In this document: positions 1-17,685 of the stretch, piece by piece | Position numbering within the stretch: position 1 is the stretch's first letter | Layout: each line of letters opens with the position of its first letter | Assembly (NCBI GenBank): GCA_018823175.1 | Contig: JAHJIY010000004.1 | Coordinates: 1,963-65,962, forward strand | DNA length: 64,000 nt | DNA from: Pseudomonadota bacterium | GTDB lineage: Bacteria; Desulfobacterota; Desulfobulbia; Desulfobulbales; JAHJIY01 | Direction of reading: 5' to 3' | Made by a program: the position numbers and the translations under genes | Notes under the pieces: generated by a model | Told to the model about the DNA's origin: nothing | Database searches by the model: none | What the model saw: only the letters and a program-made list of their open reading frames with translations

Positions 1-819
1 GCCGGTTAAAGGTCCCTGGGGATTCTTCATTGGACTGTTTTCATAATAGTCCTTGCCATACCAGTCTCCAGTCCACTCCCAGACGTTGCCCACCATATCA
101 TATAAGCCAAAAGCATTGGGTTTAAACTGCCCCACCGGGGCAGTCACAATGTAACCATCATCACAATTATGAATAGTCCAATCAGACCAAAATGTATTTG
201 CCGTTATATCAGCGATATTGCCATACATACAGGCATCATCCGGACTATCCCCCCAGAACCTGGAGGTTTTACTGCCGGCCCGGGCCGCATATTCCCACTC
301 CGCTTCGGTTGGCAACCGAAAGGTCTTGCCGCTTTCCCTATTTAACCACTCGATATAGGCCATGGCATCATCCCAAGAGACATCGGTCACCGGTTGCTCC
401 TCGCCATTAAATGAATATCCTTCAATATTCCTGCTTACATGTTTGCCATTAAAGAGCTGATACTGGCGATTAGTCACCTCGTACTTCCCCATATAAAAGC
501 CATCGACACAGACCTGATGGACCGGCCCCTCATCAGGTTTCCTACTTTGTTCATCGTCAGGACTCCCCATCTCAAAACAGCCGCCATCAATCCAGACGAA
601 ATCCATTCCGGTTACAAGATCCACATAGTTTTCTGATGCAGGTCCGGATTGTAAGGGAAGATCCGGCTGATCATCCTTTCCGGTTACCGGCTCGACATAG
701 TTTTCGGCCGCAGGTACCGATTGCAAGGGAAGAACCGGTTGATCATCCTTGCGAGACACCAAAAATAGAGCGATCATTACTACTAAACCCAGCAATACCA
801 CCGACAAAAACCATTTCAT
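1..819 (-). CDS. Formylglycine-generating-enzyme (FGE)/sulfatase-modifying-factor domain protein; the C-terminus lies beyond the window edge
   Basis: Missing from the ORF track because there is no stop codon inside the window. I translated the minus strand from the ATG at 819 (an alternative in-frame ATG is at 828). The product starts MKWFLSVVLLGLVVMIALF, which looks like a signal peptide or membrane anchor. Two 24-aa KDDQPxLPLQSxPAxENYV repeats follow. After those come DGGCFEMGSP, GPVHQVCVDGFYMGKYEVTN, VSWDDAMAYIEWLN, RLPTEAEWEYAARAG and YDMVGNVWEWTGDWY, which are hallmark FGE-sulfatase domain motifs. Confidence 0.8.
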   Translation of the reverse strand, partial: MKWFLSVVLLGLVVMIALFLVSRKDDQPVLPLQSVPAAENYVEPVTGKDDQPDLPLQSGPASENYVDLVTGMDFVWIDGGCFEMGSPDDEQSRKPDEGPVHQVCVDGFYMGKYEVTNRQYQLFNGKHVSRNIEGYSFNGEEQPVTDVSWDDAMAYIEWLNRESGKTFRLPTEAEWEYAARAGSKTSRFWGDSPDDACMYGNIADITANTFWSDWTIHNCDDGYIVTAPVGQFKPNAFGLYDMVGNVWEWTGDWYGKDYYENSPMKNPQGPLTG

Positions 820-1036
820 TTTACCCATATCTTGCTACCCTTTGAAATTTAGGAGATTACAATGAAATATTACTTTTCATAATTTAATGTGAAAATTGGA
901 AAAATACCAGATTCTTTCTTCCCATGAGCGCCTGCTAATCCTGAGTAATGCCAAGCGAATTGCTGTTCAATCATTGATTATAATATTGTAATTACTCACC
1001 CCCATGGCCACCCTACTATCAATAACCACTAGAGTT

Positions 1037-1145
1037 GTAAATGCTTACAGGGTATCGGAGATGCGAGGCATCGTCGTGCGACGCGTACTTCCTGTACGTG
1101 AGCATGGCGATAACGAAGCAGATTCGGTTTCCTGTAAGCAGTTAC
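1037..1145. repeat. Imperfect palindromic intergenic element of about 109 bp
   Basis: The outer arms GTAAATGCTTACAGG (1037-1051) and CCTGTAAGCAGTTAC (1131-1145) are near reverse complements. The interior is also self-complementary around GTACttcctGTAC. Internal strings (GCTTCGTTATCGCCATGCTCACG on the reverse strand, CATCGTCGT) resemble the element at 34977-35121. Confidence 0.5.
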
Positions 1146-1168
1146 ATCAAATTATCATCATCTGTTGC

Positions 1169-3406
1169 TCAATTCTGATTACTCTTCGGGGCAATTCTTT
1201 TGGCTTTTGAAAAAAAAGCCTCCGCCTCCTTGCTTCTCCCCTGCTCTTGCATGATCATGCCAAGATTATAATATGCCTCACCATATTCAGGGTCTTTGGC
1301 GATTGTTTTTTGGTAATGGTCAATTGCTTGCTGGATTTCCCCTCGCATTTGTAAAACACTGGCGAGATTATATTCGGGAATGGCAGAGGCCGGATTGAGT
1401 TGAATCGCTTTTCTGAAATGCGGTTCAGCTTTCTCCTTTTCTCCTGAAATGACCAGAAGTACCCCCAAATTAACATGTTCACTGAAAAGGTTGGGGTTCA
1501 TCTTCAGCACATTTTCATATTCCCTTACCGCTTCACCAATATGTTCTGTTGCGGTATAGCTTTCAGCCAGGCTCTGACGCATTTCCAATGAGTCTGGAAC
1601 AATTCTCACCGCTTCCTTAAAATTGTTCAGAGCATCGTCATTTTTACCTAATTTTTTTAAAGCCTTACCCAACCCATAATGGGCTTCCGCAAGCCTATGG
1701 ACCTCTCTGTATCGCTGCATATCCTCTTCCGATCTTCCCCGGTTTTCAAAAAGACCGGCAATCTCCTGTGCGGAATGATTACCAGGATATGTCTCTACAA
1801 TCTTGTTAAAATACTCAATGGCCTGGGTTGGATTTTCTCTCCGTAAAGCATTCTGGCCAAGAATAATGAGCGTCTCTTTATTTTTAAAGATCTCATATGA
1901 CTTCAGGTAAAGATTATGGGCCTCTTCCAGCTTGCCGGCCCAGTTCATAACTGATCCCAGGTTGAATAAAGACCTGGCGATCATTTCCGGATCGAGTTGG
2001 GCTTCCTTCTTTTTTGTAACAGCAGCAATGGCTTCATCATTCCATGTAGGAACAGGTTTAACCGTCCCTTGGCGCACGAGCTCATCCAGCAGATTAAGGG
2101 CCAGCAGACGATAACCCTGGTAAGTCATATGGACATGATCTAGAAAATATTCTTCTCCAAAGATAGTATGCCCATAGTCCCGAGCATAGATCTTTTCAAG
2201 GCTGGACTGGAAATCGACCAGAGGTACACCCATTTTCTCGGTTACAGACCGCAAGTCCCTGATCATGGGGGTCAGGATGCGCAGCGGGCAGATATCTTCA
2301 TCCACCGCCCGCTGAAACGATTCTTTTGCCTCACCAAATTGTCCAAGTTTGAAAAATGCCCAACCTAAACTGAAATCAACGTGCGCAAAGCGACTGTCGA
2401 TGACCAGCGCTTTCTGAAATATATTCACAGCCTCCCCGTATTTTCCTGAGTTGAACAGGCTAGTCCCAGAGATATAAAGATTCTCCCAGCGCTTCCTCTT
2501 GTCTCCGGTCAATCCCTCATCAATTTGACTTTTAAAGGGAGAGATATCCTTCAGATTTTTTACTGGATTAACGAAGATTATTTCACTGCCAACCGAACGC
2601 GCCGCAGCGACCATGCGCTCAAGGTTAAATTTAAAATGGGCAATAACATCCTGTTCAAAAAGATCATCACGCTGATATGCTTCCGGACCAACTGACTGGT
2701 TGAGTATCTCCTGCACCTCGCCGGTCATCTGGTATTTTTTTTGGGCCTGAGAGGATGAGGATGGCACAGCCTTATCAATAACATATTTCATCGCGGAATA
2801 AATCCGGGTTGATCCTAAAATCTCGGTCAGGCCAACAATGACCCAGGGAATTTCCTGAACATGCTGATACGTTCGATTTTCCAGGAATTCATTATGGCCT
2901 GAATAAATAATAAAAAGATCCGGCTCATACTGGCCTAATTCCTTCATCAATTCTGCGACCCGATAGCTGGCATAACTGATGCCACCAGCATTGATCACCT
3001 CCCATTGGTGGGAAGGATCTGCCACCGGTAGAAATGCCCGCAGCCAACTGCTGAAAGACATCTTATCATCATAAGGACGGCCATATGTCGTTGAGCCACC
3101 GAGACAAAATATTCTAAAAGTATTGGGCCCCTTTTTTTTAGGGAAATTCTGGGCATTGAAAAATTTAAGTTTGTTTTTTGCTGTTGTCATCATTACCGAG
3201 CCATCCGACTGGGTCTCTTCGACAAAAAGCGGTTGAAAATAGGAAAAACCAACAAAGGGGTCATTGAGTGAGGTATATGGTTTAACACCAACCACACCGA
3301 GCACAACCTCAATAAAAACGAAAAAACAAATCGTTACCAAGGCAGCAAAAACGAACTTTTTCCATAAGAATATATGTTTTACAGATGATTCTTGCGGATC
3401 AAACAT
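1169..3406 (-). CDS. Membrane-anchored SGNH/GDSL-like hydrolase domain fused to C-terminal TPR repeats
   Basis: 745-aa ORF with an N-terminal TM helix (FVFAALVTICFFVFIEVVLGVVG). SGNH-like blocks are present: FCLGGSTTYG, NAGGISYASY, YSGHNEF and LDHVHMT. The C-terminal half is made of repeated TPR-type helices such as AxxxYxxAlxxxP and ends EAYYNLGMIMQEQGRSKEAEAFFSKA. Confidence 0.65.
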   Translation of the reverse strand: MFDPQESSVKHIFLWKKFVFAALVTICFFVFIEVVLGVVGVKPYTSLNDPFVGFSYFQPLFVEETQSDGSVMMTTAKNKLKFFNAQNFPKKKGPNTFRIFCLGGSTTYGRPYDDKMSFSSWLRAFLPVADPSHQWEVINAGGISYASYRVAELMKELGQYEPDLFIIYSGHNEFLENRTYQHVQEIPWVIVGLTEILGSTRIYSAMKYVIDKAVPSSSSQAQKKYQMTGEVQEILNQSVGPEAYQRDDLFEQDVIAHFKFNLERMVAAARSVGSEIIFVNPVKNLKDISPFKSQIDEGLTGDKRKRWENLYISGTSLFNSGKYGEAVNIFQKALVIDSRFAHVDFSLGWAFFKLGQFGEAKESFQRAVDEDICPLRILTPMIRDLRSVTEKMGVPLVDFQSSLEKIYARDYGHTIFGEEYFLDHVHMTYQGYRLLALNLLDELVRQGTVKPVPTWNDEAIAAVTKKKEAQLDPEMIARSLFNLGSVMNWAGKLEEAHNLYLKSYEIFKNKETLIILGQNALRRENPTQAIEYFNKIVETYPGNHSAQEIAGLFENRGRSEEDMQRYREVHRLAEAHYGLGKALKKLGKNDDALNNFKEAVRIVPDSLEMRQSLAESYTATEHIGEAVREYENVLKMNPNLFSEHVNLGVLLVISGEKEKAEPHFRKAIQLNPASAIPEYNLASVLQMRGEIQQAIDHYQKTIAKDPEYGEAYYNLGMIMQEQGRSKEAEAFFSKAKRIAPKSNQN

Positions 3407-3776
3407 AGAATTCCCCGTCTAAATATTTTGGTTAATCCGGACTTACCAATTTCATAACCTAATCAGTTGCAAATATGACATCAATATATAAACCAAAAAG
3501 AAGGTACAAGTTTTTGCATAATTTCCAGCCTGAATCTTGATGGCTTCGAAGTTAACCAGCTTGACTGGAAACGAAAAGTCCAAATCGACCAAATTGGCAG
3601 ACGATTTTTCAATAAGTTAAATAGCACTATCCGTCCTACTGTCAGCATACGAAACTGCTGACGATTGACACGTGGCTTTTTACGTCCAACCTCTACCTCA
3701 GGCTTAAATACTACAGGGGATTAGACCAAATCCATTACTCTTCAATTGGTCTGTAGTTGGGAAATCTGGATATAGC

Positions 3777-3806
3777 AAAAAAAAAGGGGCGCCCGGAGGG
3801 CGCCCC
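3777..3806 (-). terminator. Rho-independent terminator of the giant cytochrome gene
   Basis: The minus strand reads GGGGCGCCC-tccg-GGGCGCCCC followed by a run of 9 T. It lies 29 nt downstream of the stop codon at 3835. Confidence 0.85.
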
Positions 3807-3834
3807 TTAAAGCCGTCAGATGACGGGTTGAGGT

Positions 3835-6800
3835 TTAATTGTTGTTACATTCGGACTGGATTGCAACCGCTGAACCGGCAAGTCTCGAATTGGCACCAAC
3901 TGTAATTGTAATGTTATCAGTGGTGTTACCGGTTGCAGCGTTAGTCCTCTGCCATACTTCGGTATACGTAAGAGCATTCGTCATGGTATACGAAGGTGAA
4001 GTAGTAGCATCGAGTGTACAATCGGTTGTACTATTACTTGATGCTCCGATTACTGCAAAGTCATTCGCCGCATAAGAGATTGGCAAGTTCACAGTAGTAG
4101 TTGTAGCACGAGTGTTATTGTAAGCAGCAACACCAGTCCCTCCACTCGGGGATGGATTCGTCTGATTGACATAGTCATATGCTATAGCAGCCATAGCTAT
4201 TTCGGTAGGTGTAGAGCTGGTCGTATAATCCAAAACCGAATTGGTGGCCGCATCGAGGCACGCTTCATCACAGAAACCTATCCAGGACTGAGCCCTCTGA
4301 GCGGTGACGTCATCTCCAGCATTAGCTACCATGGAAAGAGATTGTCCACCATAGGTAACCGCTTTGGTTGTAGCACCGGCAGTACCGTAGTGCATGCCTA
4401 ATTGAACAACCAGGAGCCTACGACCTGCATCGCCAGCGCCAGGCGTCGTATGAGACCCGGTCGGGACAGCGAATGTACCAAGATCATTAACCTGCGTAAA
4501 ACCTGCCAATACGGTAGCAGTACCACAGGAAGGCGCAGCAGTAACGGTCGCAACAATTGAATCATTAAACGATCCAGAAGCATCCGAGACCGTGTAGCTA
4601 ATGGTACAAGACTGAGCTCCAGCCGGAGCGGTCCAGCTTATGTTGGTAGGCTGACCGATTGCCTGATAAGCGGTTGGGATACTGGTATTAACCGTCCCAC
4701 CACAGTTATCAGAGAATGCTGTTACCCTAATCTGGTCAGCTTCGTTATCAGTAACCGTACTGGTTACCTCAATATTAGTTTTGGTCGTGCTCTCCACAAT
4801 ATTGAAGTCAGCAGGTGGTGTTCCGATAACCGGAGCATTATTAGCCGTAGCAGTAATAAAGACCGTGGCGGTAGCAGTGCTGGCGTCACTAGCGGTAATG
4901 GTATAGGTGAATTGGGTATTACCAGTCGTACCATTACCGGTAAAGTTAACACTGACATTATCAAGCCCGATACCCACCGAACCGAAAGTAGGTTGAGTTA
5001 CCCCAGTAATGGTGATGCCGGTACCGCCGTCATTAGCAAACAGGGTCGCCAGGTTGGTGACCACTAAATTGCCTGAGCCTACCGTTAAGCGGACCGGAGT
5101 CCCATCATCCCCTGCAGAGGCCGGGGTCGGCACGTTAGCATCAGTGATCGGATAAGCCATGACATCGACACTATCACTTTGAGAACTGACCACGTTTACT
5201 GTCCTTCCATCGGTCGGATAAGTGTAATTAAGCACTTCGGCCGTACAGGAACCGGTATCGATAAATCCTACATTACCCGCGCCATTCTCCAGAGTCAGAT
5301 CAGTACAGACCCCGTTGGTGACTGTCGCGGTCACGGTCAGAGTCGTCCCAAGCCAGTTCGCACTGGAAACCGCAACGATATCAATAGTTGCATTCTTCTG
5401 CACCCTGGCGTTCGGGGTTTGCTGGGCAAAGGCCGGGATCGTATCAAGCACCGCCGTAGTCGGAGTCGGGTAATTCGTATTGGAGTTATAGGCGGCGCCG
5501 GTCCAAGGAAGCGGAACGCTAAGCTGACCATCCGTAGTCGGAGTGGCTACCGCCGTCGGCATGGTTACACCCTTATAGGTCCGCCCGTTGGCCCGGGAAT
5601 TGTTGTTATAATACCCGGCATTTTTAGAACCTAAAGAACCATTGGTCCGATTACCACAACGGGTTGAGCCCCAGGTGGTAGAGTTCCAGGCAGTGCCGAC
5701 CGCATCATTACCACTCGGATTTGTCCCGGTAGGCCGGAAGATATCACCATAGTAATTGATGTTACTGATGTCGTTAAAGTTAGTCCGGCCCGGCAGGTAT
5801 TGACCGGCATTATAGTTGGCCAAACTTCCGCAGTAACTCTGGGTCGGCTTGATATTGGTCGGGAAACCGTGCGCCGGGTTTACGACAGGAGCCAATACTC
5901 CGCCAGCGGTATTGGTACCATCATGACAACCAATACAGATACCCCAGTTGTTGATCTGGTTGGCGGTATTGGGAATGGTATGAACCGTGGTCTTGGGATA
6001 CGCTGCCGACCAGGCGCCGGTGGCGCCGGTGGCGCCGGTCTTCTTGGCATCCGACCCCTGGTTGAAGGCGGTAATGGTCATATTGTTACCCGCCCAACCG
6101 TCCGTCCGGCCGTTTTGGCTGGAGGCAACTTGCCCGGTACCCTTGGCAGCCTTAGGCATCACATGACACTCCTCGCAGGCCAGATGGGTCGGCGGCGCGG
6201 TATAGCCGCCACCAGGCCGGTTGGTGGAGTAGGGAGAGACGTTCCAATTCGCAATCCGCGTATCGGTATGACAATGCTCACAGGCACCACTCAAGGTATT
6301 GGCATTCCCATGATGGATGTTGCCAAGAGGAGTAGCGTTATGACAACCCGTACAGACACCAGGGGTCATGGCGCCAACACCCTTAGTGGTAGGAGCCGTC
6401 TTCAATCCACCAGCTAATGTGGTGGGATCAAAAGTATGGCAGGTAACACAGGCGTTGTGCACCAGTCCGTCAGTAGTGCTCACCGGCATCGCCGTAGCGG
6501 TACCTGCGACATTGGCGGCAATATGGCAGCCACTAGTAATACAGCTGGTTCCGGTCGCCACAACCCGAGTCAGATGGTTAGCCGGCAACTTGGCCAGGCT
6601 TGAAAGACTCGAAGCATTTGCCGCATGGCAGGTTACACAGTTGTTACTGGTTGCGGTTGCCGTATCATGATGGATACCACCGATGACAATGTTACCAACA
6701 TTATGACAGGTCAGACAATTAAAGGTCGTAAGGTCAGAATGAGGTGCGCCGGCAACTTTATCAGTAGCTTCCCTGGCATCACCATCACCATTAGCCCCCA

Positions 6801-9800
6801 GTTTTGCGGTATCACGTCCAGTCTGACCGTTAATATGGCAGGTATCACAAACATTTCCGTGAACATCTTTAACCACATCAGGGTTTGCAACATTATCATG
6901 ACAGGTTCCACAAGCAGCTATACTTGCAGCGTCCCAAGCAAAGTGGGCAATATCATGTCCACCATGGGGTAGGGTCCGTACGCCATGACAATCGGCACAA
7001 TCCGGTGCAGCATTAGATCCGGTACGCTTACCATTAGTGATGGCGAGATCGATATCGGCCTTCACTAACTTACTGCCACCATAGTTATGACAACTGTCAC
7101 AGACCATGCCACCGCTATAAGACGTGGTAGCCCTTGTCATATGGCCGGAGTAAATATTGGTAAAGCCCATGGCATCATGGCAGGTGTTACAAGTTCCGGT
7201 AATCGAAACATCCTCAGTTCGAACTGGAGCATTAACCTGGCCATTCTCATAAACACCGGCCGAGTGATCAATCGCATGATCACTGTCATCAGAGTTGTAC
7301 GTAGTATGACAGGTGGCACAGTTACTGCTGTTGGCACCGGTTATCGGCATCACAGGTGCCCGAACACTTGTTCCTACCAGAGCACCGGAAGTGGTATTAT
7401 GGCAGGAATCACAAGCGTCATGCAGGAGATTGCTGGCACCTACCGTTATCCCGGTAAGGTATCCAGCCGTATTAACATGACATGCGGTGGTACAATCTGA
7501 GGCCGCATTGGCAACCGTCAGGCTGTGATTGGTGCCGGAGGTGGTATGGATCGACTGCCAACCTGCGCTATGACAAACGTCACACTCGCCGCCAACTACG
7601 GTCATGCCCGGAGCCAGGGCTGCGGTAACCAGACCGCCATCAACATCATGACAGTTCTCACAATCACCGGAGAATTGACCGGTAATATTGTTATGAACAT
7701 CAAGTGCGGCAGTAAACGGTGAAACATTAGCCCGGGCTGCGTTAGCAGTACCATCGGCATCATGACATCTCTCGCAGGTGACACTGGTCGTAGTCTTAAC
7801 CAGGCCGACATGAATGGCCGGGGCCGAAGTGGTATGCATACTCTCCCAAGCATCGGTATGACAATCGGCACAGTTATTGGTCCCGGTTGACATCACGTTT
7901 ACACCTTTGGTTCCAGGTGCGGTTACCAGGGTTCCACGATAATCAGTGCTGACCGCCAGTGTATGACAAGTGCCGCAAGCATCATGAACCCCGTTATCAC
8001 CAAGTGCAACCGGAGCGCCGGTTCCGGCGGTATCAGCGGTCGCGGTATGACAACCGACACAGGTACTTGGAATGGCGGTATTATCAATGGTCGCGCTGTG
8101 GCTTGTCGCGGTATGACAGCGAACAGCACAGTTGGCAACAAGCTCTGGACTGTTGGTCTTGTTATCATGATGGATCCCGCCGATTGTCCCGGCATTAACT
8201 GCGGTCCCTGAGGTAGCCGGGCTATGACAGGTTAAGCAATTAAAGGTGGTCAGGTCGGAATGGGGAGCGCCGGCAACACCATCGGTTGCTCTGGTGGCGT
8301 CACCATCGATACCGTTTAATCCCGCACCGGCCTCTGCTGTATCACGACCGGTTGAGCCATCAACATGACACATATCACAAACACCATGGATATCATCTGC
8401 CACATTAGGAGTACCCGCATTATTATGACATGAACCACAAGCGGTTATGGATGCGGCATCCCAAGGGAAATCAGTCGCAGGATGACTTCCATGCGGCAGA
8501 CCACGTGGACCATGACAATCAGCACATGAGGCCAAGTTTGCAGGTATATCTGTTTTCGCACTAGCGATGGTATTAGCAACTGCGGCAACGGCACTGTTAT
8601 GGCAAGTACCGCAGGTAATTGCCGTTCCAGCTAAAGTACCATCGGTTACGCCAGTAATATCGGCAACTTTAATCGTCAGACCGACATGAGCGCTGGCCAG
8701 ATTGGTATTAAAGTTGGTGCCGCCGGAACCTTTGCCGGCATGACAGGTATTACACTGACCAATTACACTACCAGTTGCACTACTTTCCTGAGTAATCGCA
8801 TCTTCGTAGTCAGTATTGTTATGCTCGGAAGCATGACCATTGACCCGATCGGTATGACACTGGGCACAATTCTGAGCCGTACCTTTGACATGGGTAGCAG
8901 CGTAACTCCTCAATGTACCGTCATCAGGGGTTCCAGTCGTATCGGTATGACATGAATTACAACTGTTATGAACCGCCGTCTGGACATTGCCGATATGACA
9001 TACTTCACATGAGCCGGTAGTGGCAGTAACCATAGTTGCATGGGTATCAGTGGTTACGGTATGACTGGCATCATTAAAATCATTGGCCAGTGTGGAATGG
9101 CATTTCAAACAGTCACTAGCAACCCCGAAGACATGGTTGGTAGCGCTGCCTTTGAGCGTACCGTTTGTCACATCATTGGTATGGCAGATGTTACATTTGC
9201 TACCATGGATACCGGTAATAATATTGGTCGTACCATGACAGGTAGTACATTTTGCTGAATTAGTTGAAACTACCTTGGTGTGAGTCTGGACCTGATGGGC
9301 CGCCTTGAAATCACTGTAGGCGCCATGACATGTGTTACAGTCACTTGGGATGTTAATCACATGAAGGGTAGCGTTACCTACGGAGATAGCGGCAGCCCGA
9401 CTGGTAGCTCCCGTACCATCTACAAATCGACCATCGGTTCCACCAGTAACAACCGTATCAAGATGACAGTTCTCACAACCATTAACATTATGGGTATTAG
9501 CCACGATATTGGCGGCTGAACTACCGTCATGACAGTTGGTTGTACAGTTACCGGCAGCGTTAGCGGTAATTACATCCGCTGCCGCTTGAGTCTGGTGGTT
9601 GGTGTTGTTATGACCGGCGCCAGCAAAGTCGGTATTATGACTAGCATGACAATCGACACAGGTTCCACCGTGACCACTGTTAATTCCTTCGTAGTTCACT
9701 TGCTCGCTAATGGTACCACCGAGCGGAGCATCACCGCCAACACTGTAGTTCCAAAGAGCGTCGCCACCGGTCGGAGCTTTATGACATTTGCCACAAACGC

Positions 9801-12501
9801 CGTGGATGGTATCAATATAAGTATCGTTATCCGCAGTACCTGCCTGATCATGACAGGAGGTACACTCGGCAGATCCCTTAACTACGCCGGCTCCGGCCCC
9901 GCCATCATATGTGGTATGATCAATGATGCCATGAGGGGTATTTGGAACCTTCGGAAGATGACAGGTACGACAATTTACGGTGCCTGTACTGCTGATCGCG
10001 GCACTGACCGTAGCGGTCTCCATCACATTATAAGTACCACTACCCTTCACATAATCATGGCAGACAGCGCAGGAACCATGCTCGGAAAGAACCCCGGCAA
10101 AGGTATTGAGATCATATGTACTATGACAACCGACTCCGCCATTCCAACAACCCTTGACCGCGGTTTGCGAAGTATCACCAACCGAATCATAAAGAACATC
10201 ATGGGTAGTTGCCCGATCATTGGTGGCCATCGGCGAAACATGAATTACATTAAATACGGCATGGCAGTTAACACACTCGCCTCTTCCGGAAGGAATAACC
10301 GCACCGGTAGCCGGATTATGACAGGTTTCACATTTCAGAGCACTATGAACCTCGGTGCCTGCCGTATAGGGAGCAGTGGTCGCTTCATGACAACCAGTAC
10401 AGTTAATGGTATTCGGAGTTAAACCAATGTTTCCGGTTACGCTGGTCGCATGACCCGGATGGGTATGTCCAGCAAAGTAAGCGCCATGACATTCTTCACA
10501 GTTGCCGCCTTTGCCTAAACCGCTACCGTAATCACCGGAAGCGTCACCAACATCACCAGGGGCGCTGCCGGCAATACCGTTAATCCGTTCACCGGTAGTG
10601 GTGCTATGACAGTTGGTACAATCTGCATCATGGGTACCGGCATTTCCGGAACCAACATAAGAAGCATCAATCACATCACCAGCATGACAATTGGCGCAAA
10701 GGGAGGTGGTGACAACTGAGGCAACATGGTCATGGGTATGAGCAGCAAAATAGGACACATGACATTGAATACAGGTGCCGCCAGCACCACCATTAACAGT
10801 GGCATCACCGACATTGGTGATTGTACCGCCGTAACTGGCAGCGTTGGCCGCGCCGTTAACCCGGGAACCATCTACCGTGCTGTGACAGTTCCAGCAGTTA
10901 TTGTTATGAACGGTAACGCCACTGGTATGACAGTTCACACATAGCGCCGTATCATTAATCCCAGTATGAGGATGAATATGGTTATCAAAGTAGGTGGTAT
11001 GACATTCCTGACAGGTGGCAACCGCATTCTGGCCAGGCATGGCGCCTGGCTTAAGCTCGACCGGCGGCGGGGTAACCGTAATATGACAAAGATCGCAATT
11101 ATCATTGTGGACATTAACGGCACTGACGATGGTATCGGCATTTGCCACAGTGTCATGACAAGCGGAAACACACAGAGGGAAAGTAGTCAGGGCGAGATCA
11201 TGAACGCCGGTCAGAACCGGATGGCCGGAATCTTTGCCGGCATGACAATGGAGACAGCTTATCGCCCAATCGGCTGAATGATTGGAACCAGTATTAGTCC
11301 ATGAATAACCCTGCAAAGGACCAGCACCATCAGGATCAACCGCTATCCGAACAAGAACGGTTGGGTTAAGGTCAGGAGTACTGGAGGTATGGCAGATAGT
11401 ACAATCAGCATGTGCGGTCTGAGGATCAGTGACGTAGGACGAATGACATTTGGCACAAGTTAATGCACCAGCAGTTATTATTGCTGGCACCCCGGCATGA
11501 GCCGGAGCACCGCCACCACCAGCAAAAATATTATGACAATCAGTACAAGCCTCGCCAACATGATGGCCAGGAACCGGGTCAGTACCATTAGCAACCCAAT
11601 AATTAGTAGCGACATGACATGACTGACAAAGTCCTTCTGGAGAAGCAGCATTATCTGGGGCATTATCAACAAAACCACCGGTGGTTGCCGGAATTGAGGC
11701 CGGCTCATAAAATTTCACATTCCGGTTGCCGTTGCCATGGGACATGGCACTGGTCATAAACGAACGGATCAACTGACCGTAGAACAGACCGAAGTTTTTA
11801 CCAGAATATAAAGTAGCGTTAACAACACCTTTAACGGTGATCGTCGTCGGGGTTGCGGAGAGAACCTCAAAAACCTCATTGGGGTTGGCCCGGTTGGCAA
11901 CAAACATCAGTCCACGGGAACCGTCTGTTGCCCGAAGTGCCATGGCGGGTGTATCTACGGAATAAGCGCCAGCGGCGCCTTTGGCGTACCAGGTTGTCTC
12001 ATCGGCATATTTGCCGGCAAAGCCGGTATGGGTGATGGTCGTGGTGCCGAGGGGATTGGCTGAGGATTGGCTACCGACATTGAAGTCTATACTGGTGATC
12101 AGATCACCGTTCGCAACCCAAAGACCGGAGTCCGTATTCCAGTCCAACTGCTCCTGGTAATGGGCATTGTGACAATCGGAACATAAGGTAGTCCAGTTTT
12201 CCGTACCGTTGATCTGGAGATCGGAATGCATCGCCTTGATCGGGCCCGGGACCGCAAGAACGGCAAGGACCGGAGAGTCGCCGTGGCAGTTCAGACACAA
12301 CAAGTTTTCAGGTGCAGTGTCAGCAGTAGACGGCGGCATAACTCCTCGAGACATATTGGCAATAAATTTATGACAATGCCAGCATGCGATGCCGCTTGCT
12401 TCGTTGTGAGGCGCATCCATCGAATACGCCTGACTGGTGCCGGTGTTTATTGCCAGTGTGGCCAGCAATAAACCTAAGAATAACGCCAGTTTCTTCATCA
12501 T
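3835..12501 (-). CDS. Giant secreted multiheme cytochrome c (about 2,888 aa, about 63 heme-binding motifs) with a heme-free Ig/cadherin-like C-terminal region
   Basis: The minus-strand ORF is uninterrupted for 8.7 kb. I moved the start to the ATG-ATG at 12501/12498, which follows an AAGGGGGA Shine-Dalgarno sequence. The Sec signal is MMKKLALFLGLLLATLAINTGTSQA. Between nt 12384 and 5923 I counted by hand about 58 CXXCH motifs, 4 CX3CH motifs (CVSACH, CTTNCH, CAVRCH, CTTACH) and 1 CX4CH motif (CITSGCH). The last 690 aa or so have no heme motif and are rich in T, S, N and G, with beta-sandwich-like segments (for example TYTITASDASTATATVFITATANNAPV). Confidence 0.93.
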   Translation of the reverse strand: MMKKLALFLGLLLATLAINTGTSQAYSMDAPHNEASGIACWHCHKFIANMSRGVMPPSTADTAPENLLCLNCHGDSPVLAVLAVPGPIKAMHSDLQINGTENWTTLCSDCHNAHYQEQLDWNTDSGLWVANGDLITSIDFNVGSQSSANPLGTTTITHTGFAGKYADETTWYAKGAAGAYSVDTPAMALRATDGSRGLMFVANRANPNEVFEVLSATPTTITVKGVVNATLYSGKNFGLFYGQLIRSFMTSAMSHGNGNRNVKFYEPASIPATTGGFVDNAPDNAASPEGLCQSCHVATNYWVANGTDPVPGHHVGEACTDCHNIFAGGGGAPAHAGVPAIITAGALTCAKCHSSYVTDPQTAHADCTICHTSSTPDLNPTVLVRIAVDPDGAGPLQGYSWTNTGSNHSADWAISCLHCHAGKDSGHPVLTGVHDLALTTFPLCVSACHDTVANADTIVSAVNVHNDNCDLCHITVTPPPVELKPGAMPGQNAVATCQECHTTYFDNHIHPHTGINDTALCVNCHTSGVTVHNNNCWNCHSTVDGSRVNGAANAASYGGTITNVGDATVNGGAGGTCIQCHVSYFAAHTHDHVASVVTTSLCANCHAGDVIDASYVGSGNAGTHDADCTNCHSTTTGERINGIAGSAPGDVGDASGDYGSGLGKGGNCEECHGAYFAGHTHPGHATSVTGNIGLTPNTINCTGCHEATTAPYTAGTEVHSALKCETCHNPATGAVIPSGRGECVNCHAVFNVIHVSPMATNDRATTHDVLYDSVGDTSQTAVKGCWNGGVGCHSTYDLNTFAGVLSEHGSCAVCHDYVKGSGTYNVMETATVSAAISSTGTVNCRTCHLPKVPNTPHGIIDHTTYDGGAGAGVVKGSAECTSCHDQAGTADNDTYIDTIHGVCGKCHKAPTGGDALWNYSVGGDAPLGGTISEQVNYEGINSGHGGTCVDCHASHNTDFAGAGHNNTNHQTQAAADVITANAAGNCTTNCHDGSSAANIVANTHNVNGCENCHLDTVVTGGTDGRFVDGTGATSRAAAISVGNATLHVINIPSDCNTCHGAYSDFKAAHQVQTHTKVVSTNSAKCTTCHGTTNIITGIHGSKCNICHTNDVTNGTLKGSATNHVFGVASDCLKCHSTLANDFNDASHTVTTDTHATMVTATTGSCEVCHIGNVQTAVHNSCNSCHTDTTGTPDDGTLRSYAATHVKGTAQNCAQCHTDRVNGHASEHNNTDYEDAITQESSATGSVIGQCNTCHAGKGSGGTNFNTNLASAHVGLTIKVADITGVTDGTLAGTAITCGTCHNSAVAAVANTIASAKTDIPANLASCADCHGPRGLPHGSHPATDFPWDAASITACGSCHNNAGTPNVADDIHGVCDMCHVDGSTGRDTAEAGAGLNGIDGDATRATDGVAGAPHSDLTTFNCLTCHSPATSGTAVNAGTIGGIHHDNKTNSPELVANCAVRCHTATSHSATIDNTAIPSTCVGCHTATADTAGTGAPVALGDNGVHDACGTCHTLAVSTDYRGTLVTAPGTKGVNVMSTGTNNCADCHTDAWESMHTTSAPAIHVGLVKTTTSVTCERCHDADGTANAARANVSPFTAALDVHNNITGQFSGDCENCHDVDGGLVTAALAPGMTVVGGECDVCHSAGWQSIHTTSGTNHSLTVANAASDCTTACHVNTAGYLTGITVGASNLLHDACDSCHNTTSGALVGTSVRAPVMPITGANSSNCATCHTTYNSDDSDHAIDHSAGVYENGQVNAPVRTEDVSITGTCNTCHDAMGFTNIYSGHMTRATTSYSGGMVCDSCHNYGGSKLVKADIDLAITNGKRTGSNAAPDCADCHGVRTLPHGGHDIAHFAWDAASIAACGTCHDNVANPDVVKDVHGNVCDTCHINGQTGRDTAKLGANGDGDAREATDKVAGAPHSDLTTFNCLTCHNVGNIVIGGIHHDTATATSNNCVTCHAANASSLSSLAKLPANHLTRVVATGTSCITSGCHIAANVAGTATAMPVSTTDGLVHNACVTCHTFDPTTLAGGLKTAPTTKGVGAMTPGVCTGCHNATPLGNIHHGNANTLSGACEHCHTDTRIANWNVSPYSTNRPGGGYTAPPTHLACEECHVMPKAAKGTGQVASSQNGRTDGWAGNNMTITAFNQGSDAKKTGATGATGAWSAAYPKTTVHTIPNTANQINNWGICIGCHDGTNTAGGVLAPVVNPAHGFPTNIKPTQSYCGSLANYNAGQYLPGRTNFNDISNINYYGDIFRPTGTNPSGNDAVGTAWNSTTWGSTRCGNRTNGSLGSKNAGYYNNNSRANGRTYKGVTMPTAVATPTTDGQLSVPLPWTGAAYNSNTNYPTPTTAVLDTIPAFAQQTPNARVQKNATIDIVAVSSANWLGTTLTVTATVTNGVCTDLTLENGAGNVGFIDTGSCTAEVLNYTYPTDGRTVNVVSSQSDSVDVMAYPITDANVPTPASAGDDGTPVRLTVGSGNLVVTNLATLFANDGGTGITITGVTQPTFGSVGIGLDNVSVNFTGNGTTGNTQFTYTITASDASTATATVFITATANNAPVIGTPPADFNIVESTTKTNIEVTSTVTDNEADQIRVTAFSDNCGGTVNTSIPTAYQAIGQPTNISWTAPAGAQSCTISYTVSDASGSFNDSIVATVTAAPSCGTATVLAGFTQVNDLGTFAVPTGSHTTPGAGDAGRRLLVVQLGMHYGTAGATTKAVTYGGQSLSMVANAGDDVTAQRAQSWIGFCDEACLDAATNSVLDYTTSSTPTEIAMAAIAYDYVNQTNPSPSGGTGVAAYNNTRATTTTVNLPISYAANDFAVIGASSNSTTDCTLDATTSPSYTMTNALTYTEVWQRTNAATGNTTDNITITVGANSRLAGSAVAIQSECNNN
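6338..7000 (-). repeat. Internal 8-heme module, copy B, of the giant cytochrome
   Basis: The segment CADCHGVRTLPHGGHDIAHFAWDAASIAACGTCH...APHSDLTTFNCLTCH...CTGCH has the same order and spacing of heme motifs as copy A, offset by about 1.53 kb. Confidence 0.85.
7855..8528 (-). repeat. Internal 8-heme module, copy A, of the giant cytochrome
   Basis: The segment CADCHGPRGLPHGSHPATDFPWDAASITACGSCH...APHSDLTTFNCLTCH...CADCH is paralogous to copy B at 6338-7000. Long identical peptide strings are shared, including AGAPHSDLTTFNCLTCH and WDAASI.ACG.CH. Confidence 0.85.
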
Positions 12502-13277
12502 GTATCCCCCTTGGTCAATTAATTTAACGTCCTGACTCGACGCCCGTAATAAAAAAAACCCCAATATTCAAGTTGCTGCCTGAAGACGGCCTGGCTCGCT
12601 ATCCCCAAACAACTATAAAAAAAATTAAAAAAGAGGACACCATTAGAACGGTGCCCCAATCAGCGAAACCTGTTGATTTCGCATAAAAATATCCGCTTGT
12701 CGGGGCGGAAATCATTTAAAAGGTATCATTAATATATATAATTTTAAGCAGATATAAAAAAGTCAATTTATACATACTTGTATTCATATTAACACGAGCA
12801 CACTCCTTGCGTCAACTATTTTCTTGACAATTGTCCTTGTTAAATCGATGTGGGAAAAGGGTCAGAAGTCTTTTGTTTATTCTGAAAAAGCAATATTCAC
12901 GCCACAAAAAATAGTGGTTAGCTGACCATAAAAAATTTCAAACCCATTTACGCGAAATATTTTTAAAACAGATAACCAAGAAATCACTTCCATTCAGCCA
13001 CAAAACATGAAAGTCAACCCATTCAAGATGATAGGCATTGATCGCTGACAATTTATTTTATTTTAACTGTTCCAACCATTCGAATAATATTATCTTGACA
13101 TTTTTCGGCACCATAACGTAGCGCAGCTGACAAAAAACGTCAGACCGAAACGAGGTAATACCCTCTCCGTCTTACCCGGTTGCATACTCTTTCATTATCA
13201 TTTATATTAGCACGTTCTATTTTACTAAATAATGACGAACCGACAGAGATTAAGCAACCTGATACCCCAAGGACATT

Positions 13278-13829
13278 ATGGAGCTCAAATCCAGCTCGCA
13301 AATCCAGATAGTTCTCCCCGATAAATGTCAAAGCGAAATAATCGACCACTGTCGACGAAAACTCGCCGGGCAATATCTGAAAGGTGAGGCCCAAGACCTC
13401 AAGGCCTTCGGCCTGATTGCCGGGACCAGGTCAGAAAATACGATCACGGTCAAGCGCTGCATGCCGCTATTGAAAAACGCCCGCTCGATAGATCCTTACA
13501 AGGGTCATATGGACCGGGTCATGACCAAGCACGCCATTCCATCAGAAACACCTCTACATAAAAGAGGATGGGTCGCCGATCCGGAGGAACTGACCGAAAA
13601 AGTAAGTGAATGCCACGCCGCAAAAATAACCCTACTGGGCACTTATCACATGCACCGGGTCGGATGGCAACACGATAAGATTCGTGACACCCCGACCAAA
13701 CTTGACACAATTTTAGGCCATGACAGCCGGATGATCATGTTCATTGTTTCAATGGTCGAACCGGACAAACCGATAATCCGGGCCTTCTTTGAGGGAATTT
13801 GCGAGCAGGAGATTGTAATTATTCCATGA
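13278..13829 (+). CDS. Hypothetical protein, possibly JAB/MPN (JAMM)-like metalloprotease fold
   Basis: 183-aa ORF. LKAFGLIAG followed by GTYHMHRVGWQHDKIRDTPTKLD resembles the JAMM pattern HxH-x(7-10)-[ST]xxD. The resemblance is weak and rests on the motif alone. Confidence 0.4.
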   Translation: MELKSSSQIQIVLPDKCQSEIIDHCRRKLAGQYLKGEAQDLKAFGLIAGTRSENTITVKRCMPLLKNARSIDPYKGHMDRVMTKHAIPSETPLHKRGWVADPEELTEKVSECHAAKITLLGTYHMHRVGWQHDKIRDTPTKLDTILGHDSRMIMFIVSMVEPDKPIIRAFFEGICEQEIVIIP

Positions 13830-13961
13830 TAATGGACGACCAGAACAAATCTGCCGCCCAGGCAAAACATCAACTATAGTTCCCAGATCAACCTTTTACC
13901 GACAGACTCCACCCCGAGGAATCGAGATGGGGTCAGGTTATATAGATAACGGGCCATTAAC

Positions 13962-15164
13962 TTGCTTTACCAAACCATCATCTGCCTTGCCTTCCTGATC
14001 ATGTTTCCTGCGGCCCAATGTTTCGGGGCAAAGATCGAGGGGATAGTCATGTCTCCCAAAGGGCCGGTTACCGGGGCCGAAGTCAGGGCCTACCCCGACT
14101 TTTCCTCTCTGGTCGCCGAGCGCGACGGTATTTTGTCATCGGCCGGGGCCAAAGAAGGTCAATTCACCATGGAACTGCCCAAGGGCAGATATTTCTTTGT
14201 GGCGCGGGGCTCCGAGGCCGGACATGAAATGTTTGCCTACCACGGGATTAATCCGGTAGCTGTTACCCACGACTACTACTGGCTGCCTTTTTTCCTGGTC
14301 GAGGCCAGGGAGGCGCGATGTTCGGTCGGCCCGCAAGGGATCAAGGGCCGGGTGACCTACAAGGGGGAACCACTGACTAACGGAGTTGTCTCGGTTTACC
14401 AATCAGCTGAAACAAGTTTTCGGGGGATGGGACTACTGACCAACACCCTCAACGACGACGGACTGTTCTGGTTTGACCTTGAACCAGGCCCCTATGTGGT
14501 GGTAGCCAGAAAAAGACAGAGCGACCAGGGAATCGGCCCGGTCAAGCGCGGCGATATTTTCTGCTATCCATCCGCCAACCCGATCAATGTGCTGCCGGAG
14601 AGTTACTGTGAGGTCGAAATAAGCTGTTACCCACGGGACAATATGGAGTCCTTTATCGACGAAGGCACGGAAAACCCACGCGGCAGAAAAGAAGAAACCA
14701 GAAGACCAGCCTCGCTCTGGGATGTTCCGGCCCAGGAAGCGGAAGGTACAATGAAACCGCCGGAGAGACTTGCCGTGGTTAGCGGCCGGGTGAGCAACCG
14801 ACAGGATAAACCGCTGGCCGGATTATTCGTTACCGCCTACCCCGCCCTGGGGATTGATCGGTTTCAGATGCATGTTGTCCGGCTAAAGACCGACTACATG
14901 GCCCGAACCGACGAAAACGGCCTATACCGCCTGGAACTTGACCGACCCGAAAAATATTATCTGGTGGCCCGGGAAAAAGTCGGTGAGGCGCCGAACCGGC
15001 AGGAATATTACGGACTATACGAAGGTAACTTCAACCACAGCATCGAAGTGCGGCCGGGAGAGAACTATTCCAGGATCAATATTACGGCTGAGCGCATCAT
15101 GCCTTTTGCCAACGCTATTTCAAGCACCAAAACAAATCAATCACCGGTAGGAAAATTACCATGA
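13962..15164 (+). CDS. Secreted protein with three carboxypeptidase-regulatory-like (CarboxypepD_reg) beta-sandwich repeats
   Basis: 400-aa ORF starting at a TTG (start uncertain) with a hydrophobic N-terminus LYQTIICLAFLIMFPAAQC. Three repeat starts fit CarboxypepD_reg domains: IEGIVMSPKGPVTGAEVRAY, IKGRVTYKGEPLTNGVVSVY and VSGRVSNRQDKPLAGLFVTAY. Confidence 0.55.
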   Translation: MLYQTIICLAFLIMFPAAQCFGAKIEGIVMSPKGPVTGAEVRAYPDFSSLVAERDGILSSAGAKEGQFTMELPKGRYFFVARGSEAGHEMFAYHGINPVAVTHDYYWLPFFLVEAREARCSVGPQGIKGRVTYKGEPLTNGVVSVYQSAETSFRGMGLLTNTLNDDGLFWFDLEPGPYVVVARKRQSDQGIGPVKRGDIFCYPSANPINVLPESYCEVEISCYPRDNMESFIDEGTENPRGRKEETRRPASLWDVPAQEAEGTMKPPERLAVVSGRVSNRQDKPLAGLFVTAYPALGIDRFQMHVVRLKTDYMARTDENGLYRLELDRPEKYYLVAREKVGEAPNRQEYYGLYEGNFNHSIEVRPGENYSRINITAERIMPFANAISSTKTNQSPVGKLP

Positions 15165-16075
15165 GAAATGTCATGTTCTCCGCATTTCTCCTTTGTTTTG
15201 CGCTCATGAGCGCCGGGCAAACTCACGCTCAGCCACTGGTTCTAGGTGATCAGATCATTCGGACCGACACGGTCTGGTCGGGGGAGATCATAGTTGACGG
15301 AGTGGTGGTGGTCGGTCGGGAGGCGACCCTCACGATCAAACCCGGCACCAGGATCCGGTTTAGGAAGAAAGACCTGAACAACGACCAGATCGGCGACTCG
15401 GAGATCCGGGTCCTGGGCAGACTGATCGCCCGGGGCACACCGGAGGAAATCATAACTTTTGCCTCAGCCGAACCGGTCCCGACGAGCAAGGACTGGTCCT
15501 ACGTGATGATCTTCACTTCCGGGCAGGAGAATTTTATCCAATATTGCTCATTCCAGCATGCCTTCACTGGCCTGCAGGTTCATTTTTCGGTGGCCCGCAT
15601 TGCCGACTCGACTTTTACCGATAACTTCGAGGGATTACGTTTCGGCCGTGGTGAATTGACCATTGAGCACAACCGCTTTTCGCATAATGACGTAGGAATC
15701 CGTTTTACCAGAATGGAAGGGCCGGCGACGATCAGGCAAAATGAGATCACCGACAACCGATTGGGGATATTCCTGGTCCCTTCCGGCCAGAATATCATGG
15801 ATTTCTTCGAACCAGACCGGAGCGGCCGGGCCTGGAATACAGGACACTTAATGATCACCGCCAATAATATTTTTAACAACTCATGGTATGATCTCGATTT
15901 AGGTGAAAAACAATTCTGGAACCTGGAGGCCGCCGGAAACTGGTGGGGAACTACCGACCACAACCAGATCAGCGCCAAGATGTTCGCCCATCAACGTGAC
16001 CCGGCCCTGGGCAAGGTTTTATATCAGCCGACCGCCACCGCAAAAATTACCGAAGCCGGCCCTAGAATGAGGTAG
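15161..16075 (+). CDS. Secreted right-handed parallel beta-helix repeat protein (NosD/PbH1-like)
   Basis: The ATG overlaps the upstream stop (ATGA), so the two genes form an operon. The signal peptide is MRNVMFSAFLLCFALMSAGQTHA. PbH1-type repeats are present: IADSTFTDNFEGLRF, IEHNRFSHNDVGIRF, IRQNEITDNRLGIFL and ITANNIFNNSWYDL. Confidence 0.7.
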   Translation: MRNVMFSAFLLCFALMSAGQTHAQPLVLGDQIIRTDTVWSGEIIVDGVVVVGREATLTIKPGTRIRFRKKDLNNDQIGDSEIRVLGRLIARGTPEEIITFASAEPVPTSKDWSYVMIFTSGQENFIQYCSFQHAFTGLQVHFSVARIADSTFTDNFEGLRFGRGELTIEHNRFSHNDVGIRFTRMEGPATIRQNEITDNRLGIFLVPSGQNIMDFFEPDRSGRAWNTGHLMITANNIFNNSWYDLDLGEKQFWNLEAAGNWWGTTDHNQISAKMFAHQRDPALGKVLYQPTATAKITEAGPRMR

Positions 16076-17643: not shown

Positions 17644-17685
17644 GAAAAAATCGCTAATTGGCCCATTGTTTCGGATATTATTTTT

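Follow-up and report, generated by a model that had tools for sequence, protein, structure and literature searches.

Identification of a giant multiheme cytochrome

The stretch of DNA analysed here (64 kb, hereafter the window) encodes a multiheme cytochrome c of 2,888 amino acids with a Sec-type leader and 63 heme-attachment motifs, which sequence comparison places in a large, uncharacterised family of similar giants. On balance we lean towards its being an electron conduit and/or reservoir outside the cytoplasm, the cell surface or extracellular space being the favoured location. The host is a Gram-negative, sulfur-cycling bacterium of the Desulfobulbales, known from a metagenome-assembled genome (MAG); the window encodes LpxB, OmpA, a porin and AsmA/YhdP, and its aspartate kinase shares ~82-83% identity with the enzymes of Desulfobulbaceae MAGs and Thiovibrio.

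The gene and its flanking signals agree with the original prediction of a single uninterrupted ORF with its own terminator and an AT-rich upstream region. The coding sequence occupies positions 3835..12501 of the reverse strand, on which all features described below also lie, within a frame that is free of stops over 3835..12564. Translation likely starts at the ATG at 12501, 5-6 nt past a GGGGGA Shine-Dalgarno sequence (12505..12510) whose motif CAAGGGGGA is conserved in L004 and L005, two syntenic orthologues. An intrinsic terminator (3774..3808) combines an 11-bp stem containing 9 G-C pairs with a 3-nt loop and a T-run. The upstream intergenic region (12502-13277) spans 776 bp at 36.5% GC, compared to 51.2% in the cytochrome gene, and its best promoter-like site (12786..12815; TTGACG, 18-nt spacer, TG-extended TAATAT) is a consensus match only. 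A terminator-like hairpin with a U-run is found in the 5' leader (12634..12657), ~130 nt upstream of the ATG; it is a possible attenuator, and its U-run is not kept in L004 and L005. Searches of Rfam returned no match in the 64-kb window at the gathering threshold and none up to E 1 in the leader region 12450-13300. The gene is probably monocistronic.

A modular gene from short-read MAGs might be an assembly artefact or a pseudogene, i.e. a chimera or a collapsed repeat that stays in frame by chance, and one relative (L002/L015) indeed appears to be split by a frameshift. We consider such an origin very improbable. The Logan assembly of SRR2540949, a deep-groundwater biofilm metagenome, comes from an independent assembler and matches at 100% identity along 12,381 bp, and the same protein is encoded on NCBI MAG contigs, the longest of 126,942 bp (MBU0484620.1/MBU1714043.1, annotated as 'hypothetical protein'). 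Direct repeats of at least 40 nt are absent from the DNA of the gene, and its internal copies are only 30-57% identical as protein; repeat collapse is unlikely because of this lack of long repeats and the identity of the second assembly, and it was discarded on these grounds. Moreover, ribosome-binding site, signal peptide, head module and terminator are all present, and colinearity with the orthologues extends over at least 1,500 residues. The locus adds a clean and complete example, backed by an independent assembly, from a Desulfobulbales lineage of deep groundwater.

Heme motifs and domain organization

A regular-expression count on the translation returned 58 CXXCH, 4 CX3CH and 1 CX4CH motifs, exactly the numbers previously obtained by hand. 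The first motif starts at residue 40 (nt 12384) and the last one ends at residue 2193 (nt 5923), with a mean spacing of 34.7 residues. About one motif is expected by chance, and 2,000 shuffles of the same residues produced six at most. Five motifs are atypical (CX3CH, CX4CH) and CXXCK is absent from the protein. The spare histidines noted earlier are indeed abundant, as 83 of the 85 non-motif histidines fall in the heme region, for 63 hemes. The mature apo-protein has a mass of ~292 kDa, or ~331 kDa with 63 hemes, and a pI of 5.5; Lys, Glu and Arg each account for less than 2% of the residues while Thr, Asn, Ser and Gly together make up 39%.

The anticipated Sec signal peptide covers residues 1-25 (12427..12501). 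The N-terminus, MMKKLALFLGLLLATLAINTGTSQA/YS, displays the n-, h- and c-regions of a Sec/SPI-type signal, as read by eye and from hydropathy, with a predicted cleavage site SQA/YS whose position is kept across the family alignment A1. This leader is the sole hydrophobic segment of the whole protein and is devoid of any cysteine, including a lipobox cysteine. It is followed by a conserved five-heme 'head' (residues 26-335; 11497..12426), defined by invariant C/H/Q/G/W columns in alignments A1 and A5, in which hemes at C40, C69 and C107 precede a beta-rich insert and those at C292 and C319 follow it. The heme-free insert (residues ~120-285; 11647..12144) lies in a 185-residue gap between motifs and is mostly beta-strand in the AlphaFold2 model, with a local pLDDT of ~70-79 in an overall poor model (16 sequences, pLDDT 48). 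Foldseek comparison of this head model with the PDB gave nothing below E 0.1, and its matches to small beta-barrel domains were given no evidential value.

The remaining 58 motifs form a heme array (residues 336-2193; 5923..11496) with a median spacing of 30 residues, built from c7-type units and others resembling MtrC domain II/IV. In the HMM search three Pfam families scored above their cut-offs: Cytochrome_C7 (PF14522; 185 bits, cut-off 24.8, 13 stretches), MtrC/MtrF domain II/IV (PF22113; 104 bits, cut-off 30, four stretches) and Cytochrom_c3_2 (PF14537; 85 bits, cut-off 25, two stretches). This upholds the assignment as a Sec-exported multiheme cytochrome c. NCBIfam gave only sub-threshold matches for the protein (DmsE, GSU2203, HmcA) and none in its tail. 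Fragment self-BLAST revealed an internal super-module duplication, with copies at residues ~1177-1618 (7648..8973) and ~1693-2113 (6163..7425) that share 55-57% identity in their core and 30-40% elsewhere. The C-terminal tail (residues 2194-2888; 3838..5922) is heme-free, rich in Thr, Asn, Ser and Gly, and contains neither a transmembrane segment nor a recognised sorting signal. Its middle part (residues ~2355-2660) is 34-41% identical to other family members and includes an Ig-like Big_9 domain (residues 2473-2550; 4852..5085) scoring just under the Pfam cut-off (23.2 versus 23.6 bits). The AlphaFold2 model of the tail, built from a five-sequence alignment, was unusable (pLDDT 34).

A family of giant cytochromes sharing the head module

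Word-index homology search proved nearly blind to this protein (5 matches) and an exhaustive search was required, which yielded ~290 related cluster representatives. Almost all originate from Desulfobulbia MAGs, and individual genomes contain many paralogues; a cultured carrier, 'Desulfobacterota bacterium M19', has three or more genes with the head. Among the best 150 of these ~290 relatives, at least 54 have 30 heme motifs or more, and the highest count among relatives in public data is 92. The head module, present in 128 of the retrieved proteins, follows the pattern PH..C..CH, C..CH, H, W..C..CH..H.Q.Q, beta insert, C.QxCH, C..CH (alignments A1 and A5). The window's protein carries this five-heme module of ~300 residues directly after the signal peptide, and departs from the consensus at two near-consensus positions, with DCHNAH in place of DCHDPH.

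The general layout of the family is an N-terminal five-heme head followed by a c7/MtrC-like heme array and variable Ig-like tails, and the heme wires with an N-terminal head range from 8 to 92 hemes. The tails of the syntenic orthologues contain two Calx-beta domains with He_PIG/Big_9, those of P0004 and P0005 Big_9 and cadherin-like domains, and P0002 has beta-propellers, fn3 and TSP3. L004 and L005 are ~30% identical to the window's protein and bear 48-49 hemes compared to 63, so that heme number is not tightly conserved; at ~30% identity, the internal duplication is not demonstrable as the source of the 14-heme excess. The head also occurs as the C-terminal domain of proteins with RCC1, fn3, TSP3, InlB-repeat or subtilase domains; in the RCC1-propeller, fn3, TSP3 and subtilase proteins it lies at the extreme C-terminus, always with exactly five hemes. 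The partner domains of these non-cytochrome proteins (RCC1, fn3, subtilase) are of types usual in secreted proteins. A more speculative reading, to which we give rather little credence, is that the head, specific to Desulfobulbia and their relatives, acts as a portable unit for docking and electron entry, which plugs varied exported proteins into one common redox partner at the cell envelope. If so, the giant cytochromes would be interchangeable 'extension leads' of varied length on a shared socket. In practice, the locus leads to a family that numbers at least ~290 clusters and can be recognised by its head module, a profile of which offers a simple handle for finding giant cytochromes in metagenomes and for picking tractable shorter members for structural work.

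Genomic context

The neighbours of the cytochrome gene encode a TPR/GDSL protein, a 183-residue protein without known function, and CarboxypepD_reg and NosD-like proteins. As stated in the original prediction, no porin or periplasmic partner adjoins the gene: neither a porin nor a small periplasmic cytochrome is encoded within ~10 kb, and the lone porin-like gene of the window (Porin_O_P) is 31 kb away. Nor is a type II secretion gene, an outer-membrane porin or a lipoprotein anchor linked to it. Across 68 related loci no porin or secretion gene recurs as a neighbour; generic sensor kinases, FG-GAP/NHL/BACON proteins and DsbA-like thioredoxins do recur, and none of these adjoins the window's cytochrome gene.

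Proposed role outside the cytoplasm

We infer heme occupancy, location, geometry and physiological role from the features described above, and propose the following scheme. The protein would be exported unfolded through Sec and would then acquire, through the periplasmic system for cytochrome c maturation, up to 63 covalent hemes, most of them with bis-His ligation. The conserved head would probably be the docking or electron-entry end; the array of ~1,860 residues, with its c7-type and MtrC-domain-like units, would have been enlarged by duplicating a ~430-residue block; and the heme-free Ig-like tail of ~700 residues would probably serve for attachment. At the surface, such a heme chain could carry electrons over tens of nanometres, with minerals, partner cells or the biofilm matrix as recipients. 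It is reasonable to suppose that a single polypeptide holds a long heme chain; the protein could also be compact or branched.

The conduit and/or reservoir reading relies on the intact ORF, on 63 motifs where about one is expected by chance, and on the Sec-type leader, together with the three cytochrome Pfam families above cut-off and the 83 free histidines. It is also in keeping with the scarcity of Lys, Glu and Arg, the Thr/Asn/Ser/Gly-rich composition, the Gram-negative host, the 290 family representatives and the surface-type domains in the tails of relatives. There are precedents in the literature: an 86-heme single-chain cytochrome of Desulfuromonas acetexigens is expressed under electrode- or iron-oxide-respiring conditions (PMC12133095), and multiheme cytochromes of Desulfurivibrio alkaliphilus are up-regulated when sulfide oxidation is coupled to iron oxide reduction (PMC12545173). 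Against this reading we count that neither an outer-membrane porin nor a type II secretion gene nor a lipoprotein anchor is linked to the gene to account for passage across the outer membrane, as well as the low identity and smaller heme number of the syntenic orthologues. Also against it, the closest solved relative by profile, a weak match (3OV0; E 0.006, over one di-heme unit), is GSU1996, a periplasmic protein. Desulfobulbales include sulfur disproportionators, cable bacteria and organisms whose sulfide oxidation is coupled to the reduction of iron oxide.

The protein might, instead, stay in the periplasm after Sec export, as an electron store (capacitor) or a relay filling this compartment, which would buffer electrons or pass them between quinol oxidoreductases of the inner membrane and outer partners, a role that has been put forward for Geobacter poly-c7 cytochromes. 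We regard this as a genuine possibility, although not the expected outcome. An SPI signal without lipobox, the lack of a nearby secretion or porin partner and the predominance of c7-type repeats speak for it; GSU1996 and its domains are the best solved matches for head hemes 4-5, albeit weak (3OV0, 3OUE, 1RWJ; E 0.003-0.015), and both storage and long-range transfer have been named as reasons for many-heme chains (PMC11492766, PMC7399161). However, an Ig-like tail of ~700 residues, like the Calx-beta, cadherin-like and propeller domains of relatives, is typical of surface proteins, the head is common to proteins with RCC1, fn3, TSP3 and subtilase domains, usual in secreted proteins, and 63 hemes at ~0.8-1 nm each, as estimated from known structures, would exceed the width of the periplasm if arranged linearly. 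The relatives' tail domains and the head on secreted-type proteins are indirect hints that favour a cell-surface location.

The long Ig-like tail of the window's protein, the existence of other proteins in which the head is fused to adhesin-like or protease domains and the recovery of the identical 12.4-kb contig from biofilm metagenome reads would also suit a redox-active adhesin or matrix protein with a mainly structural role in mineral or biofilm attachment, whose hemes would make the matrix conductive without a dedicated respiratory conduit. The five atypical motifs, for their part, might include a catalytic site. We judge both variants improbable. No catalytic family was detected, the matches to NrfA and octaheme nitrite reductase span just short di-heme packing motifs, and CXXCK, as noted, does not occur.

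Comparison with known systems

When PDB sequences were searched with phmmer, the whole protein had no match at E ≤ 0.01 and residues 1168-2210 had no meaningful match. GSU1996 of Geobacter sulfurreducens resembles the window's protein in its repeated c7-type units, with ~27-35 residues per heme, but the profile match is weak (E 0.006), and GSU1996 comprises 12 hemes in 318 residues and possesses neither the head insert nor the Ig-like tail. The PHC family of cable bacteria and Geobacter combines a five-heme domain with a beta/Ig-like domain, sometimes fused to others (PMC11976967). Its members lPHC, sPHC, ExtKL, GSU2801 and T. tepidum c552 (5ZE8) have five hemes, like the window's head with its beta insert, and some come, like our host, from Desulfobulbales (cable bacteria). 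The match of the head to 5ZE8 was marginal and unstable in three profile searches (E 0.016, no match, E 1.5), too weak to claim membership of this family.

The Shewanella cytochromes MtrC, OmcA, MtrF and UndA share with the window's protein the Pfam MtrC/MtrF domain II/IV and a candidate role in electron transfer at the surface, UndA also giving a weak profile match. In contrast to the window's protein, they are lipoproteins with 10-11 hemes whose genes adjoin MtrAB porin and periplasmic partners; within ~10 kb the window locus shows no porin-cytochrome conduit cluster of the Pcc/Mtr/Ext type. The outcome proposed here, an uninterrupted run of hemes over tens of nanometres or more outside the cell, would match that of the nanowires OmcS, OmcE, OmcZ and the archaeal AvECN, but these are polymers of small 4-8-heme subunits, whereas here a single covalent chain would set a fixed length; no similarity to them is detectable by sequence.

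The original prediction ranked the heme count among the largest known, and this is not supported. Besides the relatives with up to 92 motifs, 69, 86 and 87 motifs have been reported for single polypeptides, the 86-heme one being expressed, and mined sequences exceed 100 (PMC11492766, PMC12133095, bioRxiv 10.1101/2025.05.29.656830); single-chain cytochromes of this heme count are already known and the window's gene is not exceptional. The giants of Desulfuromonadia, outliers in their own genomes, have been discussed as wires or capacitors (PMC12133095, PMC11492766). Like the window's protein, these giants (such as the 86-heme protein of D. acetexigens and the 53-87-motif sequences from a survey of Desulfuromonadia) are single secreted polypeptides with tens of close-set CXXCH motifs, a likeness of description, while the present host belongs to Desulfobulbia and its family is set apart by a five-heme head of its own.

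A secreted cytochrome gene with 63 heme motifs

A single open frame runs within the window from 12564 to 3835 on the minus strand. The first in-frame ATG preceded by a ribosome-binding site (GGGGGA, 12505-12510, minus strand) lies at 12501 and gives a protein of 2,888 aa; the same start is used in the NCBI annotation, where the product is labelled 'hypothetical protein' (MBU0484620.1 / MBU1714043.1). The CAAGGGGGA motif upstream of the start is kept in both syntenic orthologues, L004 and L005, which are related loci in other genomes. A regular-expression count yielded 58 CXXCH, 4 CX3CH and 1 CX4CH motifs, exactly the numbers of the original prediction. They extend from aa 40 (nt 12384), where the first begins, to aa 2193 (nt 5923), where the final one finishes, with a median spacing of 30 residues (mean 34.7). 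Shuffling the residues in 2,000 trials produced about 1 motif per shuffle and 6 at most. Motifs account for 63 of the 148 histidines and 83 of the remainder lie within the heme region, so that the spare histidines noted earlier are indeed numerous enough to supply each heme with bis-His ligation. The N-terminus, MMKKLALFLGLLLATLAINTGTSQA/YS, has a predicted Sec/SPI signal layout, as originally read; this leader lacks cysteine and is the sole hydrophobic stretch of the whole protein. The mature protein has a computed mass of about 292 kDa in the heme-free form and about 331 kDa once the hemes are included, and a pI of 5.5. Overall composition is extreme (Thr 13.6%, Ala 12.1%, Gly 10.7%, Asn 7.9%; Lys, Glu, Arg and Gln each below 2%), and 11 of the 13 non-motif cysteines lie in the heme-free tail, where they may form disulfides.

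Three Pfam families scored far over their cut-offs along aa 30-2200: Cytochrome_C7 (185 bits, 13 stretches), MtrC/MtrF domain II/IV (104 bits, 4 stretches) and Cytochrom_c3_2 (85 bits), in line with the multiheme cytochrome c assignment. A sequence search against solved structures detected no similarity for the cytochrome. In NrfA, octaheme nitrite reductase and NrfB, profiles of its N-terminal region matched no more than short motifs of di-heme packing; they also matched UndA and, at hemes 4-5, weakly the poly-c7 dodecaheme GSU1996 and its domains (E 0.003-0.015). The C-terminal 695 residues are heme-free and rich in Thr, Asn, Ser and Gly, with no transmembrane segment and no recognised sorting signal. 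One copy of a Big_9 Ig-like domain is borderline there (23.2 bits against a Pfam cut-off of 23.6), and the segment at aa ~2355-2660 recurs in other giant cytochromes at 34-41% identity.

Collapse of near-identical repeats during assembly is unlikely, since the gene contains no direct DNA repeats of 40 nt or more and its internal protein repeats, to judge by their divergence, are old: in fragment self-BLAST, aa ~1177-1618 and 1693-2113 share 55-57% identity in their core, against 26-40% elsewhere. An independent assembly of SRR2540949, a deep terrestrial groundwater biofilm metagenome (PMC5364579), gave a 13-kb contig 100% identical to window 3118-15498, and NCBI MAG contigs as long as 126,942 bp encode the identical protein.

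Transcription unit and neighbouring genes

The upstream neighbour is divergent and the downstream one lies 428 bp past a strong hairpin with T-run that follows the stop codon (3774-3808), which makes monocistronic expression, as first proposed, the simplest reading. The terminator and the AT-rich upstream region of that proposal were both recovered, the latter as 776 bp of 36.5% GC. This region holds a promoter-like site (12786-12815, minus strand) and, in the 5' leader about 130 nt before the start codon, a terminator-like hairpin with a long U-run (12634-12657, minus strand). The 5' leader folds better than shuffled sequences (z = -3.1) and had no match in Rfam. Its hairpin region aligns with G+C-rich hairpins of L004 and L005, where the U-run is not kept. 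The hairpin may be an attenuator.

The divergent neighbour (183-187 aa, no Pfam match, no signal peptide) holds this upstream position in all three syntenic genomes (window 13278-13829, plus strand; L004:8344-8895 and L005:8770-9333, minus strand). Secreted CarboxypepD_reg-domain and NosD-like beta-helix proteins adjoin the cytochrome gene (13962-16075, plus strand) and also a related giant gene in another locus, L002 (L002:12560-19198), a co-occurrence that may reflect a functional link or only shared ancestry. L002 also repeats an OpuAC-like protein (34% identical to that at window 21836-22459) and a phosphonate-binding protein. Next, at 16459-21745 (plus strand), come an ELFV-dehydrogenase-like gene, two tandem adenylosuccinate-lyase-like paralogues and a NicO/DsbD_2-like membrane protein, a putative Ni/Co transporter; parts of this run are kept beside the cytochrome gene in L004 and L005. 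Further away, 35684-38074 (plus strand) encodes a lipoprotein-like protein of 796 aa, in which an LQGC lipobox is followed by an Asp/Gly-rich stretch; it carries two heme motifs and has no Pfam match. LpxB, an OmpA-domain protein, a porin and an AsmA/YhdP-like protein encoded in the window mark the host as Gram-negative; its aspartate kinase shares ~82-83% identity with the enzymes of Desulfobulbaceae MAGs, Thiovibrio frasassiensis and Desulfurivibrionaceae, and we place the host in Desulfobulbales.

A family of giant cytochromes with a portable five-heme head

A word-index search returned 4 relatives only. An exhaustive HMMER search with aa 1-1200 against 1.84 billion cluster representatives returned 290 at E<=1e-3, 74 of them at E<=1e-30; among the best 150 of the 290, at least 54 carry 30 or more heme motifs and 11 more than 63, with a maximum of 92 within 2,620 aa. 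By these matches the cytochrome is a family member and not a singleton. L004 and L005 share with the window the divergent 183-aa gene, a GDH-like gene and lyase genes; their cytochromes (48-49 hemes) are colinear with ours over at least 1,500 aa, yet only ~30% identical, and end in two Calx-beta domains followed or accompanied by He_PIG/Big_9 Ig domains. Two overlapping ORFs at L002/L015 (CAYRGZ010000018.1), one head-bearing (572-3337; 921 aa, 24 motifs) and one signal-less (P0004, 3043-11523; 2,826 aa, 64 motifs), look like one gene of ~3,650 aa and ~88 hemes broken by a frameshift or assembly error. Tandem giants also exist: in another Desulfobulbia MAG, a 48-motif cytochrome at least 1,293 aa long (L003:13465-17345, plus strand) directly follows the 57-motif relative P0003 and runs off the contig.

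Family alignments (A1, A5) revealed a conserved module of ~300 aa, the head, right after the signal peptide in nearly all members. It opens with PHNE..C..CH and two more hemes, continues with an invariant H..W..C..CH..H.Q.Q block and a ~165-aa beta-rich heme-free insert, and closes with two last hemes at G.CQ.CH and C..CH. Scanning one genome per GTDB species with a sequence pattern gave 68 loci, almost all in Desulfobulbia, Desulfobulbales, Desulfurivibrionaceae or Thermodesulfobacteriota MAGs. A genome often has many copies (one MAG at least 11, a second at least 9); the scan missed the window's gene because this has DCHNAH in place of the required DCHD[PV]H. The head is N-terminal in 102 of 128 retrieved head-bearing proteins (3-92 heme motifs, median 23), internal in 4 and present twice in 2. 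In the other 20, each time with exactly five hemes, it sits at the extreme C-terminus of otherwise non-cytochrome proteins built of RCC1 propellers, fibronectin type III, thrombospondin type 3, InlB B-repeat or subtilase domains (for instance L024:5900-10789, L050:7976-10816, L053:4919-7483 and L054:6911-10801). These proteins (P0085-P0145) usually finish in ...QGFKP and occur in the same Desulfobulbia genomes as the giant cytochromes; no conserved neighbour gene was found for them. Judged by this distribution, the head is a portable module.

A proposed electron conduit, or a possible periplasmic store

In the periplasm, once Sec has exported the protein, every CXXCH motif takes up one heme c, and electrons pass along chains of bis-His hemes that are in van der Waals contact or nearly so. 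MtrA places 10 hemes over ~8 nm, OmcS 6 per 4.7 nm and GSU1996 12 over ~12 nm; with such a rise of ~0.8-1 nm per heme, 63 hemes could span 50-60 nm if linear. The cytochrome would serve as an electron conduit at the cell surface or outside the cell, the location that we favour because family tails consist of domains typical of surface proteins, because the head also occurs in proteins that otherwise carry domains common among secreted proteins, and because the protein contains very little Lys, Glu and Arg. However, the cytochrome lacks a lipoprotein anchor, and neither a porin nor a secretion partner lies near the gene, as the original prediction had noted for porins, or recurs across the family. 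Since, in addition, GSU1996, the nearest solved relative, is periplasmic, a capacitor or relay within the periplasm is a serious rival. The candidate conduit originally proposed stays a plausible reading of the sequence.

Comparison with known multiheme cytochromes

All that the original prediction observed in the sequence was confirmed. It also ranked the heme count among the largest known, a claim that did not hold, given relatives with up to 92 motifs and published counts. Giant cytochromes of this kind are already described: a survey of Desulfuromonadia reported a long tail of up to 87 motifs and cites 53 and 69 (PMC11492766), Desulfuromonas acetexigens expresses an 86-motif cytochrome in electrode and iron-oxide respiration (PMC12133095), and genome mining found more than 100 motifs per polypeptide, the largest solved structure having 16 hemes (bioRxiv 10.1101/2025.05.29.656830). 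Studies of groundwater have treated proteins with 30-53 hemes as wires or capacitors (PMC7399161). What our analysis adds is to bring out a family, centred on Desulfobulbia, that has a portable five-heme head. In structure, the pentaheme cytochrome (PHC) family of cable bacteria has been likened to T. tepidum c552 (5ZE8) and to Geobacter ExtKL/GSU2801 (PMC11976967). Head profiles against 5ZE8 gave a marginal and unstable signal (E 0.016, no match and E 1.5 in three runs), and the head model was too poor for comparison. PHC proteins have an Ig-like domain and fusions to other domains (PMC11976967), and the cable bacteria in which they occur are relatives of the window's host.
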